DNA of 64,000 nucleotides from Limnothrix sp. BL-A-16. GTDB lineage: Bacteria; Cyanobacteriota; Cyanobacteriia; CACIAM-69d. Location of the stretch: the NCBI GenBank assembly GCA_041937175.2, contig CP166615.1:3520001-3584000 (forward strand). The letters run 5' to 3'. The notes under the pieces are model-generated. The model did not search any database. It was not told where the DNA came from and saw nothing but the letters and a program-made list of their open reading frames with translations. The position numbers were made by a program, and so were the translations under genes. This document shows, piece by piece, positions 40,355 to 45,902 of this stretch (position 1 is its first letter; each line of letters starts with the position of its first letter).

Positions 40355-41236
40355 CTAAGGTTCCGGTTCCGTCGCCGGAGCGATCGCCGCAAACAGCGCC
40401 GAATAGTCCGTGTTGCCCAACCCCAGGGCGATCGCCCGTTCCACCACTGCCCGCACCGCCTGCACCGGAGCCGTATCAATTCCTTGGGCCCCCGCCGCCT
40501 GGGCAAACAAGTCCAGATCCTTCAGCAGATGCTTCGTGGGGAAATTGGGGCGATCGAAGTCCCGATCGAGCATCCGTTGCAGCTTCTTATCAAAGGTCGG
40601 CGCGTAGAGGGCGCTGGGTCGCAAAATCTGCAAAAAGGTCTCCACGGCAATCCCTTCCCGCTGCACCAGAGCCAAACTGGCCGCAAAGGCCGTGGTGAGC
40701 GACCCAATCAACTGATTCATGGCCAACTTCAACGCCGCCGCCGACCCCACGGGCCCCACCAACAGCGGCTCGGGGCCAAAGGTTTGCAACCAAGCCCGAT
40801 CGCGCTCAAACTGGGCCGGCGTGGCCCCCACCATCAACAACAACTTGCCCGCGCTCAGTTCGGGAATGCTGCCCAGGACGGGCGCTTCGTAATAGTCACA
40901 GCCCCAAGCGGTTAACTCAGTGCCGATCGCCCGGCTTTCTTCCGGAGCGATCGTGCCCATTTGCACCACGGTTTTGTCCACCAGCAGCGACCCGATCGCC
41001 CCCTCCAGCAGCACCGATCGAATGGCGGCCCCATCCGCCAGCCACAACACCACCCGATCGGCCGGGGCGATCGCCGCCGCCAAATCCGTTGTGGTGTTCA
41101 GGCGATCAATCCCCTGCAACAGTTCCAGGGCCTCGGGCGATCGGTTCCAAGCCACCACGTCTTCGCCCGTGGCCGCCAGCCGCCCGGCCGCGGCCCGACC
41201 CATTAACCCCATGCCCAACACGGCTACTACAGTCAT
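40355..41236 (-). CDS. NAD(P)-dependent beta-hydroxyacid dehydrogenase family protein
   Basis: GMGLMG, WNRS, EAPVLGS, LKLAMN, KHLLKD. Confidence 0.9.
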   Translation of the reverse strand: MTVVAVLGMGLMGRAAAGRLAATGEDVVAWNRSPEALELLQGIDRLNTTTDLAAAIAPADRVVLWLADGAAIRSVLLEGAIGSLLVDKTVVQMGTIAPEESRAIGTELTAWGCDYYEAPVLGSIPELSAGKLLLMVGATPAQFERDRAWLQTFGPEPLLVGPVGSAAALKLAMNQLIGSLTTAFAASLALVQREGIAVETFLQILRPSALYAPTFDKKLQRMLDRDFDRPNFPTKHLLKDLDLFAQAAGAQGIDTAPVQAVRAVVERAIALGLGNTDYSALFAAIAPATEPEP

Positions 41237-41689
41237 TGCGCTTACTTTTGTTCTGAGCGATTAGTTTGCATGATCCTTAAGATCGCATCAAACTGCTCAG
41301 AAAATATGAATCCTTAAATGTCAATTATCAACTGAATCGATCATCCCGTAGGTTGAATGGAAGTAAGGCTAAATTGTTATGAAATGGTTGATTTTTCTCC
41401 CATACACCGAAAATTTTGACCACCCAACCGATCGGGGAAAGGGTTGGTTTGATCGATCGATGGCGGTGCATGGGAGATAAGGGAAAAGGGTTGTTGGCAA
41501 TCGAAAAACCCGTTACTTTTCGGGAGCGGTAGGGTTTGTGGGAGAACGCTTTCGGGGTAACGATTTGGCTTTTTGGTACTCCCACGCACCGTCGATCCCC
41601 TCTCGGGATCACGAGATCGTTTTTCTGCGTCCATGGCAGATGATTTCCCCGGTTAAATTGGAAGGGTTGATCGCCCTGCTCACAAATCT

Positions 41690-42058
41690 ATGCTGTTAAC
41701 CGCTGCCGAACTCGTGACCATGATCGTGGATGGCTTCATCGCCGCCGGAGCCGGAAAGCTGACCGAAGCGGCCCTGCCCAAGCTGCGAACCCTCTGGAGC
41801 AAAATTCGCGATCGCCTGGCCCGTCGCCCGGAGCTGCCTGCCCTGCCGGAAACGCCAACGGGGGTGATCGATCCGCAAGTGCTGCCGATCCTCGATGCGG
41901 AATTGGTGAATGATCCGCCCTTTGCTGAGGAAGTGCGGGCGATCGCTCAGGAATATCAACAACTGATCCAGCAACAAGCCCAAATGACCCAAAACAACTA
42001 CGGCAGCAACAACAAAAACTATCAAATCGGCTCAATCAACGAAGCAAACTTTTCCTAG
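41690..42058 (+). CDS. small helical (Bell-like) protein with C-terminal N/Q-rich putative amyloid motif
   Basis: AGAGKLTEAAL..LW.KIR, DPPFAEEV; C-terminal TQNNYGSNNKNYQIGSINEANF is shared with the downstream NLR. Confidence 0.75.
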   Translation: MLLTAAELVTMIVDGFIAAGAGKLTEAALPKLRTLWSKIRDRLARRPELPALPETPTGVIDPQVLPILDAELVNDPPFAEEVRAIAQEYQQLIQQQAQMTQNNYGSNNKNYQIGSINEANFS

Positions 42059-42070
42059 CTCATCATTCAA

Positions 42071-42154
42071 GTAGGTTGGGTTGAAGCATGAAACCCAACA
42101 CCGACAAAGTTCGCATTGATCGTGTTGGGTTTCGCACAGCTCAACCCAACCTAC
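42071..42154. repeat. GTAG-type REP doublet (REPIN-like hairpin)
   Basis: GTAGGTTGGGTTGA...GAAACCCAACAC-spacer-GTGTTGGGTTTC...TCAACCCAACCTAC inverted pair. Confidence 0.85.
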
Positions 42155-42168
42155 TGAGGAAAGTTTCT

Positions 42169-42348
42169 ATGCAGATTCGTTATGACCCTGAAGCTGATGT
42201 GTTGATTTTGATTTTGCGGGATTTGCCCCCAATTGATTCGATCGCAGAACCCGGCGGAATGATTGTTAGCTACGGGGAAGGTGGGGAACCTGTTGCGATC
42301 GAGTTGTTGAATGCATCTCGATTCATCAAGCCAGACGACTTCAACTAA
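42169..42348 (+). CDS. DUF2283 family protein (antitoxin-like)
   Basis: MQIRYDPEADVLIL...GEPVAIELLNAS; GAGGA RBS upstream. Confidence 0.85.
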   Translation: MQIRYDPEADVLILILRDLPPIDSIAEPGGMIVSYGEGGEPVAIELLNASRFIKPDDFN

Positions 42349-42351
42349 CCC

Positions 42352-44853
42352 TTGAGGCTGAGTGATCCAGTGATTCATGATGTGGTTTCGGTAGAAGTGC
42401 TGACCGGCTATTGTCTGAAGCTGGGTTTCGATGACGGCGTGATCGGAATTGTCGATATTAGCCAGCAGGTTCGCTTTCAAGGTGTTTTTGCACCTTTGGC
42501 CGATCGGGCATTTTTTGAACAAGTAACAGTCAATGCCGACATTGGATCAATTGCTTGGCCCAATGGTGCTGATCTTGATCCGTTGGTGTTGTATGCCGCT
42601 GTCGCTAAAAATCAGACGCAAAATAATTACGGCTCCCACAACAAGAACTATCAAATTGAGTCGATCGGCGTTGCGAACTTTTTCGGCAATCCGATCGAGC
42701 AAGCCTTTGACCAGTCGGATTTGTTGCCGGGGCGATCGGAGGAGGAGATTGAGCGGACGGCGGAGTTGGTGCAGCTCGATCGGTGGCGGCAAGAGTCGGG
42801 CGATCGCTGGGCGGTGATTGTGGGGCCCGGCGGGGCGGGCAAAAGCACCCTGGCTGCTCAATGGTTCGATCGCGACCAGAAGTCTCAAGCATGGGCGGGG
42901 CGACTCTGGACGGATTTGGGGCGGGGGCCGAGCTTTGCGGAAGTGGCGCGGCGGGCGATCGTCCAGTTTGGCGCGGCCAGCCAGGAACAGGCGGAACGGC
43001 TGGAGGAGTCGGAATTATTGCGGCGGCTGTTGGTGACGTTGCAGCAAAGCCCCTGTCTGTGGGTGCTGGATAACCTGGAAACGGTGCTGGAGGCGCGGGA
43101 ACTGCCCGCAGACTATCGGGCGTTTTGGCGGCAGTGGCGATCGTCGTGCCGGGGGGCGGCGGGTTGGGTGTTGTTCACCAGTCGCGATTTACCGACGGAG
43201 ATGGCGGCGCAGCGGCTTGACCTGACGGAGGGCTTTACGCCTGAGCAGGGAGCCAATTTCTTGCAAAAGCGGGGAATTCGGGGCGCTGAGGCAGATTTGC
43301 AGGCGTTTTCCAGGCGGGTGCATGGCTACCCCTTGGTTTTGGGGTTGGCGGCGGGTTTTCTGTGGGCGCAGTTTGGCGACGATCCGCACCTGTCTAAGCT
43401 ACCGGCGGATTTCTTTGCGATCGCGGATCAACACCGGGACGATCCGCAAGCGACGCTGGAAACGGTGTTGCGGTGGAGTTTTGAGCGGTTGTCGCCGGAG
43501 TTGCGGGACTGGTTGGGGCGGCTCTGTGCGTTGCGGGTGGCGTTTGCCTTTGAAACGGAGGATGACCCGCAGCTATTGCAGACGTTGGTGGGGCGATCGT
43601 TCCTAATCCAAGACCAAGACTGCTTGCCGCCGACCAATCCCGATGCGCCGCGCCAATTTGTCTACCGTTGGCAACCGATCGTCCAGCAATTTGTGCAGCG
43701 CCAACAACCCGATCTGATTGAGGCCCATCGATTCGCGATCGCTCATCATGATCAGTGGTATGTAGACCACGACAAATGGCAAACCAAGGCTGATATCGAC
43801 AATTACATCGAAGATTGGTATCACGAGGGCGAACTGGCCAAGCTGACGGGCGATCGACAAGGAGAAGCCAAATCCCTGGGCAATCTGGGCCTTGCCTACG
43901 ATTCCCTCGGGCAAGTCCAGCGGGCGATCGACTTTCACGAGCAACACCGGGCGATCTCTCGCGAGATCGGCGATCGACAAGGAGAAGCCGCCTCCCTGGG
44001 CAATCTGGGCAATGCCTACCGTTCCCTCGGGCAATTCCAGCGGGCGATCGACTTGCACGAGCAATCCCTGGCGATCAAACGCGAGATCGGCGATCGCCAA
44101 GGAGAAGCCGCCTCCCTGGGCAATCTGGGCCTTGCCTACCGTTCCCTCGGGCAATTCCAGCGGGCGATCGACTTGCATGAACAATCCCTGGCGATCGCTC
44201 GCGAGATCGGCGATCGCCAAGGAGAAGCCGCCTCCCTGGGCAATCTGGGCGCTGCCTACCAGTCCCTCGGGCAAGTCCAGCGGGCGATCGACTTGCACGA
44301 GCAATCCCTGGCGATCAAACGCGAGATCGGCGATCGCCAAGGAGAAGCCGACTCCCTGGGTAATCTGGGTGTTGCCTACCATTCCCTCGGGCAATTCCAG
44401 CGGGCGATCGACTTTCACGAGCAATCCCTGGCAATCGAACGCGAGATCGGCGATCGCAAAGGAGAAGCCAGCTCCCTGGGCAATCTGGGCAATGCCTACT
44501 ATTCCCTCGGGCAATTTCAGCAGGCGATCAACTTGCATGAGCAACACCGGGCGATCTCTCGCGAGATCGGCGATCAACAGGGAGAAGCCAACTCGCTCAA
44601 TAACCGTGGCGTAGCGCTGGAAAAACTTGATCGCCTAGCAGAAGCCCAAGCAGACTTTGCAATGGCTCGGGATTTATTTCGCCAACTGGGTCAACATCAC
44701 TATGCCAAAATAGCTGAGCAAAATTATCAGCGAGTCACCCAAGCCCTGCAAACACCCCCACCCATCCCCACCGAAAAGCCCCGATCTCCCTGGTGGGTAC
44801 GACTGTGGCAAGCTTGGCGGCGCTGGCTCCGTCGCCTCTTCGACGGCCCGTAA
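42352..44853 (+). CDS. NLR-like STAND protein: DUF2442 + N/Q motif + NB-ARC + TPR repeats
   Basis: N-terminal LGFDDG...GVFAPL...IAWPNGADLDP (DUF2442); Walker A GPGGAGKS, Walker B WVLDNLE, FTSR, GYPL; 40-aa TPRs; start TTG 42352 or GTG 42369. Confidence 0.88.
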   Translation: MRLSDPVIHDVVSVEVLTGYCLKLGFDDGVIGIVDISQQVRFQGVFAPLADRAFFEQVTVNADIGSIAWPNGADLDPLVLYAAVAKNQTQNNYGSHNKNYQIESIGVANFFGNPIEQAFDQSDLLPGRSEEEIERTAELVQLDRWRQESGDRWAVIVGPGGAGKSTLAAQWFDRDQKSQAWAGRLWTDLGRGPSFAEVARRAIVQFGAASQEQAERLEESELLRRLLVTLQQSPCLWVLDNLETVLEARELPADYRAFWRQWRSSCRGAAGWVLFTSRDLPTEMAAQRLDLTEGFTPEQGANFLQKRGIRGAEADLQAFSRRVHGYPLVLGLAAGFLWAQFGDDPHLSKLPADFFAIADQHRDDPQATLETVLRWSFERLSPELRDWLGRLCALRVAFAFETEDDPQLLQTLVGRSFLIQDQDCLPPTNPDAPRQFVYRWQPIVQQFVQRQQPDLIEAHRFAIAHHDQWYVDHDKWQTKADIDNYIEDWYHEGELAKLTGDRQGEAKSLGNLGLAYDSLGQVQRAIDFHEQHRAISREIGDRQGEAASLGNLGNAYRSLGQFQRAIDLHEQSLAIKREIGDRQGEAASLGNLGLAYRSLGQFQRAIDLHEQSLAIAREIGDRQGEAASLGNLGAAYQSLGQVQRAIDLHEQSLAIKREIGDRQGEADSLGNLGVAYHSLGQFQRAIDFHEQSLAIEREIGDRKGEASSLGNLGNAYYSLGQFQQAINLHEQHRAISREIGDQQGEANSLNNRGVALEKLDRLAEAQADFAMARDLFRQLGQHHYAKIAEQNYQRVTQALQTPPPIPTEKPRSPWWVRLWQAWRRWLRRLFDGP
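43849..44600 (+). repeat. 120-bp tandem TPR-coding repeats (six full plus one partial)
   Basis: Units start at 43849, 43969, 44089, 44209, 44329, 44449 and 44569; near-identical DNA. Confidence 0.95.
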
Positions 44854-44890
44854 AATCCATCTTTTGGTTATTGGAAAACGGAGAATCGGC

Positions 44891-45145
44891 ATGAAAGCGA
44901 TCGCCCTAGCAGAAGTCCGCGCCAACTTTGAGCAATACCTTGACCTCGCCAAAACCCAACCGATCGCCATTGTCGATCAGGGAAAACCCGTTGGATTTTT
45001 GATTGGCTTACTCGACCCCGACAACTGGTGGGAAGAGTGCTTGCTACGACATCCCAAATTCTTGAGCCATGTGGCCGAACAACGCCGCCAACTGCGATCG
45101 GGCCAAGGCAAAACCCTCGAAGAAATTCGCGCACGTTACGAGTAG
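44891..45145 (+). CDS. Phd/YefM-like antitoxin
   Basis: MKAIALAEVRANFEQYLD...PIAIVDQGKPVGFL; ends TLEEIR. Confidence 0.8.
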   Translation: MKAIALAEVRANFEQYLDLAKTQPIAIVDQGKPVGFLIGLLDPDNWWEECLLRHPKFLSHVAEQRRQLRSGQGKTLEEIRARYE

Positions 45146-45408
45146 GGCGACGCTCCCTTGATTCCCAGCGATCCTTTCATGCCCTACGCGATCGCTGCAA
45201 TGTCGCGGCCCAACGAACTCGTGGGGATTATCGTCGATCGCGTGGCGGTTGCTGCGCGTGGGAGATGAGCAGTGGATTGTTGTTGCGAAGATGGCATTCT
45301 CCCACACACCCTACGCGATCGCTGCAATATCGCGGCCCCAAGCAATTTCAGTAGAGCAATGGTTAGAAATGGGGTAACAGCTACAATCGCCATAGAGGAG
45401 GTAAAGTC

Positions 45409-45636
45409 ATGCAAATTAAAGACTTAACGATCGAAGAATTCACAGACTTATTCAAAAGCTTGCTGCGGGAAACCATTCAAGAAGTCCTCGCAGAAATGCT
45501 CACAGATTCCGAAGCCGATTTGCCGCTCAAACCCGGACTGGCCGAAGCACTCCTGAAACAGCGCGATCAGCGGCAAGCAGGCCAAACAACACCCCTCAGC
45601 ACCGAACAAGTCATGGCCCGTTTAGGACTCGACTAG
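45409..45636 (+). CDS. putative antitoxin upstream of RelE
   Basis: MQIKDLTIEEF...LSTEQVMARLGLD; ends 2 bp before the toxin gene. Confidence 0.75.
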   Translation: MQIKDLTIEEFTDLFKSLLRETIQEVLAEMLTDSEADLPLKPGLAEALLKQRDQRQAGQTTPLSTEQVMARLGLD

Positions 45637-45638
45637 CC

Positions 45639-45902
45639 ATGAGTTATTCGGTTGAATACGACCCACAAGCCGTCATCGATCTTGAACAATTACCCAAAAC
45701 TATGCAGAAGCGAGTAATCAGCAAAATCCAATGGCTAGCTGATAACTTTGCCCAAATTCAACCCCTGCCCCTCTCTGCCAACCTCGCGGGTTTCTATAAG
45801 CTCCGAGTGGGTGACTATCGGATTATTTATGAAGTCGATCGCGTCATTCGAGTGATCACAGTCGATCGTATCGGCCACCGCCGCGACATTTATGAATCCT
45901 GA
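45639..45902 (+). CDS. RelE/ParE family toxin
   Basis: YKLRVGDYRIIY...IGHRRDIY. Confidence 0.92.
   Translation: MSYSVEYDPQAVIDLEQLPKTMQKRVISKIQWLADNFAQIQPLPLSANLAGFYKLRVGDYRIIYEVDRVIRVITVDRIGHRRDIYES

Follow-up and report, generated by a model that had tools for sequence, protein, structure and literature searches.

An in-frame deletion as the probable origin of a DUF2442-receptor fusion in a Bell/BASS-type gene pair of Limnothrix

Introduction

Bacterial gene pairs in which a NOD-like receptor (NLR) shares an amyloid motif with an effector have been described mainly by bioinformatics, and a motif at the free N-terminus of the receptor is taken as defining. A locus of Limnothrix sp. BL-A-16 raises the question of how such a receptor can come to carry its motif behind a folded domain, and whether that domain has a part in signalling. 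The locus lies in a 64,000-nt stretch of DNA (contig CP166615.1; G000:C1:3520001-3584000; hereafter the window) from a genome of 4.56 Mb, assembled in 2 contigs with 100% completeness. Its order on the plus strand is an effector gene, a doublet of repetitive extragenic palindromic (REP) sequences, a DUF2283 gene and then one open reading frame (ORF) that encodes a DUF2442 domain, an N/Q-rich motif, an NB-ARC domain and a TPR array. An earlier reading of the letters alone (the original prediction) had placed a GTAG REP doublet, DUF2283 and a DUF2442-like domain between effector and receptor, correctly in each case. It had offered two explanations for the fusion, namely an insertion that replaced the start of the receptor, or DUF2442 acting as an integrated sensor, decoy or regulatory domain. 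The comparisons reported here make it probable, in our judgement, that the fusion was instead born of a deletion and that DUF2442 is a passenger, an accident of gene decay.

The two genes are separate in a related genome

In the window, the frame is free of stop codons from DUF2442 into the motif, reading ...LYAAVAKNQTQNNYGSHNKNYQIESIGVANFF (...LYAAVAKNQTQ and then the motif), and the two lie in a single ORF of 833 codons, in keeping with the in-frame fusion that had been described from the letters. Among 41 genomes (40 relatives and the window's own, G000), the locus was found in only one genome besides the window's own, that of a member of the same genus (G001). The G001 locus aligned with the window at 91% nucleotide identity in two pieces, with 123 extra nt between window positions 42614 and 42615. 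The gene order is identical (effector, REPIN, DUF2283, DUF2442, NLR) and the genes are separate, so that the alignment with a related strain, which had been proposed, yields an unfused allele. In G001, DUF2442 is a 116-aa gene of its own that ends in a TGA stop; a 33-nt spacer follows, and the NLR begins, in frame with DUF2442, at an ATG that opens the motif (MTQNNYG...). Compared to G001, the window lacks, in frame, the last ~30 codons of DUF2442, the stop codon, the spacer and the AT of the NLR ATG. Among homologues of DUF2442, it is this lost tail whose length and sequence vary freely, and the conserved core (...WPNGADLDPxVLYxxV...) is kept in the window. The tail encoded by the extra nt of G001 is also present in full in P0006 and, up to the contig end, in P0003. 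This suggests that the fusion is specific to one lineage and is the product of a 123-nt in-frame deletion. The claim that the start of the NLR had been replaced by an insertion thus holds for the loss of the start and fails for the insertion, which is refuted as the cause because the cassette of small genes is an old resident of the gap, being present in G001 and in two metagenomic loci, L017 and L018.

The G001 sequence also offers a possible route for the deletion. The hexamer CTCAAT occurs in it twice, 114 nt apart (L006 2466-2471 and 2580-2585), once just past the domain core and once just 5' of the NLR ATG. A deletion from one CTCAAT to the other predicts the junction ...K-T-Q-S-S-M-T-Q-N-N..., and the N-terminus of P0002 reads ...KTQSPMTQNNYGS, which is almost exactly what is predicted; P0002 is an NLR of 769 aa with 83% overall identity to that of the window. 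Its start, MDAADVAKTQSPMTQNNYGS, corresponds to the predicted junction after a remnant of the DUF2442 end. The junction of the window is short of a further 9 nt, including the ATG, relative to the P0002 type. Over NLR residues 26-400, identity to the window was 92.2% for P0002, 90.6% for G001 and ~80% for L017 and L018, and the first two values fit G001 as an outgroup with the ancestral unfused state. The deletion may have proceeded in steps (114 nt and then 9 nt) or have removed 123 nt at once. The DNA context of P0002 was not among the loci recovered, since the metagenome scan gave only the 76%-identical L017, L018 and L019, and the genome scan gave only G001 (L020).

Homology to G001 (L020; window 41652-44860) begins 38 nt 5' of the effector gene and stops inside the TPR array. 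The flanks of the G001 locus, in which a tRNA gene lies ~120 nt 5' of the effector, map elsewhere in the window genome (C1:4377189-4378788, a tRNA at C1:1012287 and C1:2975164-2978053). The unit of ~3.2 kb therefore has a different place on the chromosome in each of the two species. Counted from the motif, the NLR of G001 is much shorter (588 aa) than that of the window (745 aa), which suggests that the number of TPR repeats varies between the two.

The fused junction is found in other strains

To place the junction among other strains, we used contigs from four public sequencing runs of four studies, none of which is the source of the window (best share of sampled words 0.61). The junction, for which confirmation with reads had been proposed, was crossed in all four runs with 0 gaps: in X10 (record 9; 41600-43100, 43 differences in 1501 nt), X6 (record 25; 41600-42918, 30 differences), X1 (record 4; 42284-42714, 3 differences) and X3 (record 19; 42288-42669, 6 differences). 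The fusion is common to a shallow group of strains. Every covering contig from X1, X3, X6 and X10 differs from the window at 42617, where C is replaced by T and the sequence reads ...AKNQ-M-QNNYGS, leaving the window as the only one of five sequences without an ATG at the motif. Independent initiation at the motif thus appears possible in most strains, to judge from these codons, and this speaks against DUF2442 being needed.

A further contig of 200 nt from a lake metagenome (X1 record 5) joins 42317 to 42615 and skips 42318-42614. It carries the diagnostic substitutions of P0002 together with the 21-nt insertion in the motif and, because of this join, the body of DUF2442 would be gone in the P0002-type allele. 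The fused and the P0002-type alleles occur together in this one metagenome, at depths of 5.4 and 19.4, respectively.

Table 1. Coordinates of the features of the locus within the window.
Feature	Position	Strand	Remarks
Bell-like effector gene	41690-42058	+	122 aa; helical N-terminal domain and C-terminal amyloid-type motif
Effector-side motif	41993-42055	+	NNYGSNNKNYQIGSINEANFS; C-terminal end of the 122-aa ORF
REPIN-like REP doublet	42070-42155		86-nt hairpin from two inverted GTAG-type repeats
DUF2283 gene	42169-42348	+	59 aa from likely ATG 42169; orphan, antitoxin-type; stop 42346-42348
Fused ORF	42352-44853	+	833 codons; DUF2442, motif, NB-ARC and TPR array
DUF2442 domain, DhiA-antitoxin-type	42370-42606	+	complete; N-terminus of the NLR ORF
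TTG-GTG-TTG candidate internal starts	42583-42591	+	in frame; only ones just before the motif
Deletion junction	42613-42616	+	123 nt of G001 missing
ACG (Thr) codon	42616-42618	+	ATG in all four related contigs; two codons before the first N of the motif
NLR-side motif	42622-42684	+	NNYGSHNKNYQIESIGVANFF; AlphaFold2 pLDDT 50-72; abuts last DUF2442 helix
NB-ARC NTPase domain	42793-43281	+	residues 148-310; PF00931, 33.8 bits
TPR array	~43849-44700	+	TPR_12, 280 bits, 8 stretches; 120-nt period, staggered self-matches

The same architecture was not found elsewhere

Recurrence would be the mark of an integrated domain that is under selection, and it was not found in the searches made here. When residues 1-140 of the fused protein were compared with proteins of 458-1458 aa, 2 of 343 candidates matched, the protein itself and the domain-free P0002. 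The DUF2442 domain matched 4 of 110 candidates among longer proteins, none of them another NLR. An exhaustive HMMER search of 1.84 billion representatives revealed 2531 relatives of DUF2442, and among the best 150, almost all of 70-230 aa, none had an NB-ARC domain. NB-ARC was likewise absent from the nine relatives that we scanned with Pfam (P0006 with 110 aa, P0104 with 249 aa and seven others of 228-963 aa), in which DUF2442 stands alone or together with DUF4160, sigma-70 regions (P0138) or TPRs (P0104). One of the nine (P0105, 963 aa) consists of HYR repeats and no DUF2442 match in Pfam. No report that joins DUF2442 with NB-ARC was found in the literature searched, and the part surveyed of the literature on DUF2442, DUF4160, DUF2283 and DUF4258 contained no link to NLRs. 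The remark that the architecture was not familiar from described NLRs is in keeping with these searches, which yielded no other DUF2442-NB-ARC protein.

The motif is internal and lacks an ATG

The motif starts near ORF residue 91 and hence not at the receptor N-terminus, with a linker of about four residues between it and the DUF2442 domain. It is identical to the effector motif at 18 of 22 residues, and the corresponding DNA forms a direct repeat of 68 nt with 76% identity (D1). As had been noted originally, there is no ATG at the motif and the nearest alternative starts in frame are TTG 42583, GTG 42586 and TTG 42589. No in-frame ATG occurs between 42352 and 42700, that is, in the first 116 codons. 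The other starts in frame are TTG 42352, GTG 42370 and further GTG and TTG codons up to 42496. The source annotation starts the protein at GTG 42370 (827 aa; P0001), and a GAGG lies 11 nt 5' of this codon. No Shine-Dalgarno-like sequence was seen in the 20 nt 5' of the TTG/GTG/TTG codons at 42583-42591. An antisense ORF of 324 aa (43603-44577) looks like a by-product of the TPR repeat.

The DUF2442 domain itself is well defined. It scored 42.8 bits against PF10387 (cut-off 23.9), with profile positions 1-69 of 72 at ORF residues 11-83. AlphaFold2, run with an alignment of 48 sequences, modelled residues 1-80 at pLDDT 96-98, with the final helix extending into the first residues of the motif and low confidence past it. 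The model matched the N-terminal domain of 2auw_A (E 2.1e-4, rmsd 2.5 over 82 columns), and a sequence search of the PDB gave 0 matches at E<=1. Against the NCBIfam model of the antitoxin DhiA (NF048016), the domain scored 24 bits (E 4.4e-5), which is below the cut-off of 200.

Divergence between the window and G001 was estimated by the Nei-Gojobori method. The dN/dS was 0.09 for the effector, 0.73 for DUF2283 (3 synonymous and 8 non-synonymous differences), 0.22 for the DUF2442 core (7 and 5) and 0.41 for the first 436 codons of the NLR; the small genes offer too few differences for their ratios to have much meaning, and most of the divergence compared predates the fusion. In the runs, the DUF2442 part showed few differences. 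Synonymous divergence from G001 was ~0.40 in the effector and 0.08-0.15 in DUF2283, DUF2442 and the NLR (42169-43900). The effector gene is also where differences from X6 and X10 are concentrated, a pattern that may reflect recombination inside the locus.

Relation to known amyloid-signalling pairs

In the fungal NWD2/HET-S system, a motif at the extreme N-terminus of the NLR templates the prion-forming domain of a neighbouring pore-forming effector. No folded domain precedes the motif there, whereas the window receptor has DUF2442 in this position. In plants, integrated-domain ('decoy') NLRs carry domains that recur, are conserved across lineages and bind effectors. The window NLR is like these in having an unrelated small domain within it, and unlike them in that its fusion is restricted to a single shallow lineage and has a deletion as its explanation.

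Both the shared motif and the context identify the locus as an effector-NLR pair of the Bell/BASS type. The motif stands on the C-terminus of the effector and on the NLR, the receptor has NB-ARC and TPR domains, and the genes are collinear and within 5 kb of each other, with a spacing that is wider than typical. The position of the motif departs from the type: it is at the receptor N-terminus in G001 and potentially so in all four related contigs, and is internal in the window. For comparison, Dyrka et al. 2020 (bioRxiv 10.1101/2020.01.06.895854) sought receptors within 5 kb and, in the parts of the preprint drawn on here, describe 346 pairs, 91.3% of them collinear and 57% no more than 10 bp apart. 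The window resembles those pairs in its small helical effector (~120-140 aa in the type) followed by a collinear NB-ARC/TPR protein, in the shared motif of ~21 residues rich in N, Q and G, and in its filamentous cyanobacterial host. It differs from them in that the motif is internal, behind DUF2442, and in that two small genes and a REPIN intervene. The membership of the effector in the Bell group rests on its length, its helices and its context, with no Pfam match. A second point of comparison is Bab/Agp (BASS11), which according to excerpts from Ibarlosa et al. 2024 (10.1101/2024.11.07.622273) acts in antiphage abortive infection in E. coli. There too, an amyloid motif is common to two neighbouring genes, and a membrane-targeting cell-death effector is activated by the sensor through amyloid templating; the window host belongs to another phylum and its motif is another one. 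By analogy with these systems, the receptor probably triggers, by amyloid templating, a suicide effector that targets the membrane, and the locus may plausibly have a role in phage defence.

Probable origin and consequences of the fusion

Collectively, these results suggest the following course of events. The locus would be a two-gene amyloid-signalling cell-death pair of a kind in which the motif is normally at the receptor N-terminus. The gap between effector and NLR would long have been occupied by decaying DUF4160/DUF2442 and DUF4258/DUF2283 modules, with the REPIN hairpin 5' of DUF2283. A loss of 123 nt in frame would then have removed the DUF2442 tail, the stop codon, the spacer and the NLR ATG, so that a complete DUF2442 domain came to read directly into the motif. 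The main product would now be a DUF2442-NLR fusion that starts at GTG 42370, and at most a little unfused receptor would come from the TTG and GTG codons at 42583-42589. DUF2442 would be a passenger domain, and signalling may be anything from unaffected to dampened, since a folded domain of 9 kDa that abuts the motif should hinder templating and need not abolish it. The related strains with an ATG should be able to make an ordinary unfused receptor, which the window strain probably cannot make efficiently.

Several observations weigh against this account. The fused ORF is intact over its 833 codons, and the fusion is not obviously harmful since it is kept in strains that differ by up to ~3%. 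The dN/dS of 0.22 and the few differences in the runs are compatible with continued selection on DUF2442. The architecture searches cover the best-scoring or word-sharing candidates, and rare fusions may exist elsewhere. Finally, the polarity of the ACG/ATG difference is supported in both directions. The ACG matches the second codon of the NLRs of G001 and P0002, so that the ATG of the relatives would be a regained start, and that no single contiguous deletion from the P0002-type junction yields the ATG form also favours a regained ATG. The presence of an ATG in all four other sequences favours the ACG as a loss in the window strain.

An alternative that we consider unlikely is that the deletion and the ACG have switched the receptor off, with the motif blocked or the protein barely made, as an early stage of pseudogenisation. 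In this family the motif belongs at the receptor N-terminus, and here it starts at residue ~91, some four residues past a folded domain; pairs in the Dyrka et al. preprint, as far as it was drawn on, are typically no more than 10 bp apart (57% of 346). The absence of an in-frame ATG and of a Shine-Dalgarno-like sequence before the internal TTG/GTG codons points the same way, as does the window being alone among five sequences in lacking the ATG at the motif. The pair is also the sole Bell/NLR pair of the genome, so that there is no paralogue to mask a loss. Set against this, the frame runs through all 833 codons free of stops, frameshifts and truncations, with an intact TPR array, and the effector has been under strong purifying selection relative to G001 (dN/dS 0.09). 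Moreover, in experiments of the same preprint, as given in the parts used here, BASS motifs continued to form aggregates and pass them on when joined to GFP or RFP, which argues that a neighbouring globular domain need not block the amyloid.

That DUF2442 acts as a functional sensor, decoy or regulator, for example by dimerising or by binding a phage factor or a toxin of the DUF4160 type, and thereby governs when the adjoining amyloid motif nucleates, much like the integrated decoys of plant NLRs, strikes us as quite improbable, and this part of the original prediction gained no support. The domain is complete and confidently folded in the AlphaFold2 model, its frame is open, the fused junction is retained in four other strains or populations, and its dN/dS is 0.22. 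Two DUF4160 toxin-type genes lie elsewhere in the genome, and a few other multidomain proteins contain DUF2442 as well (P0138, P0104). These points are outweighed by the simple deletion from an unfused ancestor, a state still seen in G001, which explains the fusion, and by the failure of the searches made to return a second DUF2442-NB-ARC protein. In orthologous systems, DUF2442 is separate (G001, L018) or absent (L017 and the P0002 type), and the ATG of four related strains would bypass it. The pairwise dN/dS reflects mostly the time before the fusion. Slightly less probable still is that the fusion has been co-opted, with DUF2442 as a lid or sensor that would block nucleation of the motif until it is bound, displaced or degraded, with a phage factor or a toxin of the DUF4160 type as possible agents. 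If this were true, the locus would encode a bacterial NLR with a toxin-antitoxin-derived integrated domain gating amyloid signalling, and the ATG/ACG polymorphism would determine, strain by strain, how much of the receptor is gated and how much ungated. An artefact of assembly or base calling in the fusion or the ACG is very improbable: the runs compared are all from other strains (best sampled-word share 0.61) and, of five sequences, only that of the window has the ACG, but four runs from four studies bridge the junction without gaps, so that the fusion is real. The genome is in 2 contigs with 100% completeness, and a single-base error is possible at 42617 only.

In closely related strains, the locus forms a natural allelic series, with DUF2442 separate and an ATG at the motif (G001), fused with the ATG (four contigs), fused without it (the window) and with the body of DUF2442 deleted (P0002 type). 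This series would allow a direct test of what a folded domain at the N-terminus does to amyloid templating, be it to block, to tolerate or to regulate it. The locus further suggests that cassettes resembling toxin-antitoxin systems can persist for long inside an operon of an amyloid-signalling NLR, and that a gene fusion through loss of stop, spacer and start can occur in such an operon. For annotation, it counsels caution: sister alleles should be compared before such fusions are called new receptor classes.

The cassette between effector and receptor

The description of the intervening genes as an antitoxin-like cassette was borne out, with PF10049 and PF10387 both above their cut-offs and the partner families DUF4258 and DUF4160 present in L017 and L018. 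DUF2283 matched PF10049 with 42.6 bits (cut-off 23) on a longer ORF (42088-42348), which from its start at 42088 passes through the REPIN; a GAGGA lies 7 nt 5' of the likely ATG at 42169. DUF4258 had 0 matches in the entire window genome, which leaves DUF2283 without a partner. There is no DUF4160 gene between 42058 and 42352, and the two DUF4160 genes of the genome (C1:3181151 and C1:1733934) each adjoin a different copy of DUF2442. In L017, the order is effector, DUF4258 (25.2 bits; cut-off 25), DUF2283 and NLR. In L018, it is effector, DUF2283, DUF4160 (80.2 bits), a DUF2442 with its own stop, and NLR. The window and G001 thus have only the antitoxin-type member left of each of two modules. 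Because L017 and L018 hold different and fuller occupants in the same gap, the cassette appears from these comparisons to be an old and decaying pair of toxin-antitoxin-like modules, and it is dispensable.

DUF4160/DUF2442 is given as the dhiTA toxin/antitoxin pair of Dickeya in the passages used of PMC8198452, and those of PMC12065111 state that DUF4160 is typically followed by DUF2442, again as dhiTA toxin and antitoxin. Passages of PMC11980606 list DUF4258 among the toxin families of the BECR fold, as uncharacterised. The name DUF2283 is applied to regulators of the FseA/QseM type in the part consulted of PMC4755241, which is not relied on here. Like the type II system DhiTA of Dickeya dadantii, the window has a DUF2442 above the Pfam cut-off, and the orthologous locus L018 shows the canonical order of DUF4160 and then DUF2442. 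Unlike DhiTA, the DUF2442 of the window has no adjoining DUF4160 and is fused to an NLR, and its relation to the DhiA model is distant.

DUF2283, DUF2442 and the NLR share one reading frame, with only stop codons between them (window 42346-42372). In P0003, from another strain, the stop of DUF2283 is changed to a sense codon, giving a read-through DUF2283-DUF2442 protein of 160 aa.

The REP doublet

The two REP copies (42070-42084 and 42141-42155) are 15 nt long, 100% complementary and each start with GTAG, and they enclose a 12-nt palindrome (42090-42101/42122-42133). Folded as RNA, the doublet reached -52.2 kcal/mol (z = -7.9), and 0 of 200 shuffled sequences folded equally well. The 14-mer GTAGGTTGGGTTGA occurs exactly 19 times in the genome, and the REP core has 80 genome matches at <=2 mismatches, compared to 4 per shuffled Mb. 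Twelve doublets in hairpin orientation were found genome-wide (<=2 mismatches), as well as 6 full-length copies of the element (>=70 nt). It is also present in G001, G002, G013 and other cyanobacterial genomes, and the summed contig depth in the runs was very high across 42059-42160.

REPINs are reportedly REP doublets that form hairpins and are mobilised by RAYT transposases, a description attributed to Bertels and Rainey in 2011. The window element is like them as an inverted GTAG-type pair with a stable hairpin that belongs to a dispersed genomic family (12 doublets). It is unlike them in that no REP lies within ~1 kb of the single Y1_Tnp gene of this genome (C1:1721528-1721869; none between 1720500 and 1723000). 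For this reason, we call the element REPIN-like by its structure and copy number and not by a link to a RAYT.

The effector gene and the surroundings of the locus

With the NLR, the effector forms the sole Bell/NLR pair of the genome. It is separated from the fused ORF by 293 nt and from the NLR motif by 563 nt. AlphaFold2 modelled four helices, at residues 5-20 (hydrophobic), 28-44, 64-74 and 76-105, with a mean pLDDT of 81.1; residues 104-122 were below 50, and the motif tail is disordered in the model. The effector matched no Pfam family at E<=0.01 and nothing in NCBIfam. CATRA-N (E 0.04-0.16) and PreAtp-grasp appeared only as sub-threshold matches when Pfam was searched at E<=10 and were set aside as its family. 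In the PDB, nothing meaningful was found by sequence (best E 0.03, a designed protein) and nothing by Foldseek at E<=0.001 (best E 2.3). VIA-align gave a best Z of 6.6 with many unrelated helical bundles tied, including the CC domain of ZAR1 (Z 6.5), so that the two structural comparisons neither favoured nor disfavoured a fold like that of HeLo, Bab or CC domains. In a protein atlas, the effector lies near clusters that carry PF20701 HetE-N (score 0.94), which is a lead only. We found 28 homologues of the effector, some of them labelled Limnothrix or Oscillatoriales by their sources.

The motif has three unrelated alleles (NNYGS..NKNYQI.., AGVNIQ..STVKVVRDI..NVSF and AGVNVIA.DQST.KAIGSIQ..VNINF) within one clade of near-identical Bell and NB-ARC domains. 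They lie on effector and receptor at 41993-42055/42622-42684 in the window, 3240-3327/3905-4010 in L017 and 90-171/1024-1150 in L018. In each of three loci (window/G001, L017 and L018), the allele of the effector is the allele of the receptor. From these sequences, the two motif copies that flank the gap seem to have been exchanged together, with the cassette staying in place.

A scan of 41200-45200 for promoters and terminators gave 2 promoter-like and 6 terminator-like sites against shuffle means of 1.7 and 5.0, which is no excess. It gave no promoter-like site on the plus strand inside the locus, a result that is uninformative on an internal promoter. A second dispersed repeat lies 5' of the effector (41393-41546 and 41528-41640), with inverted repeats I3 and I8 nearby; as a DNA query (203-340), it matched several places in G002 and one in its own genome with 84-91% identity. 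The surroundings of the locus are rich in toxin-antitoxin genes. Directly 3' of the NLR is a Phd/YefM-type antitoxin gene (44864-45145; 32.4 bits) with no adjoining toxin called, and a two-gene pair follows at 45409-45902, with a ParE toxin (48.2 bits) in second place.

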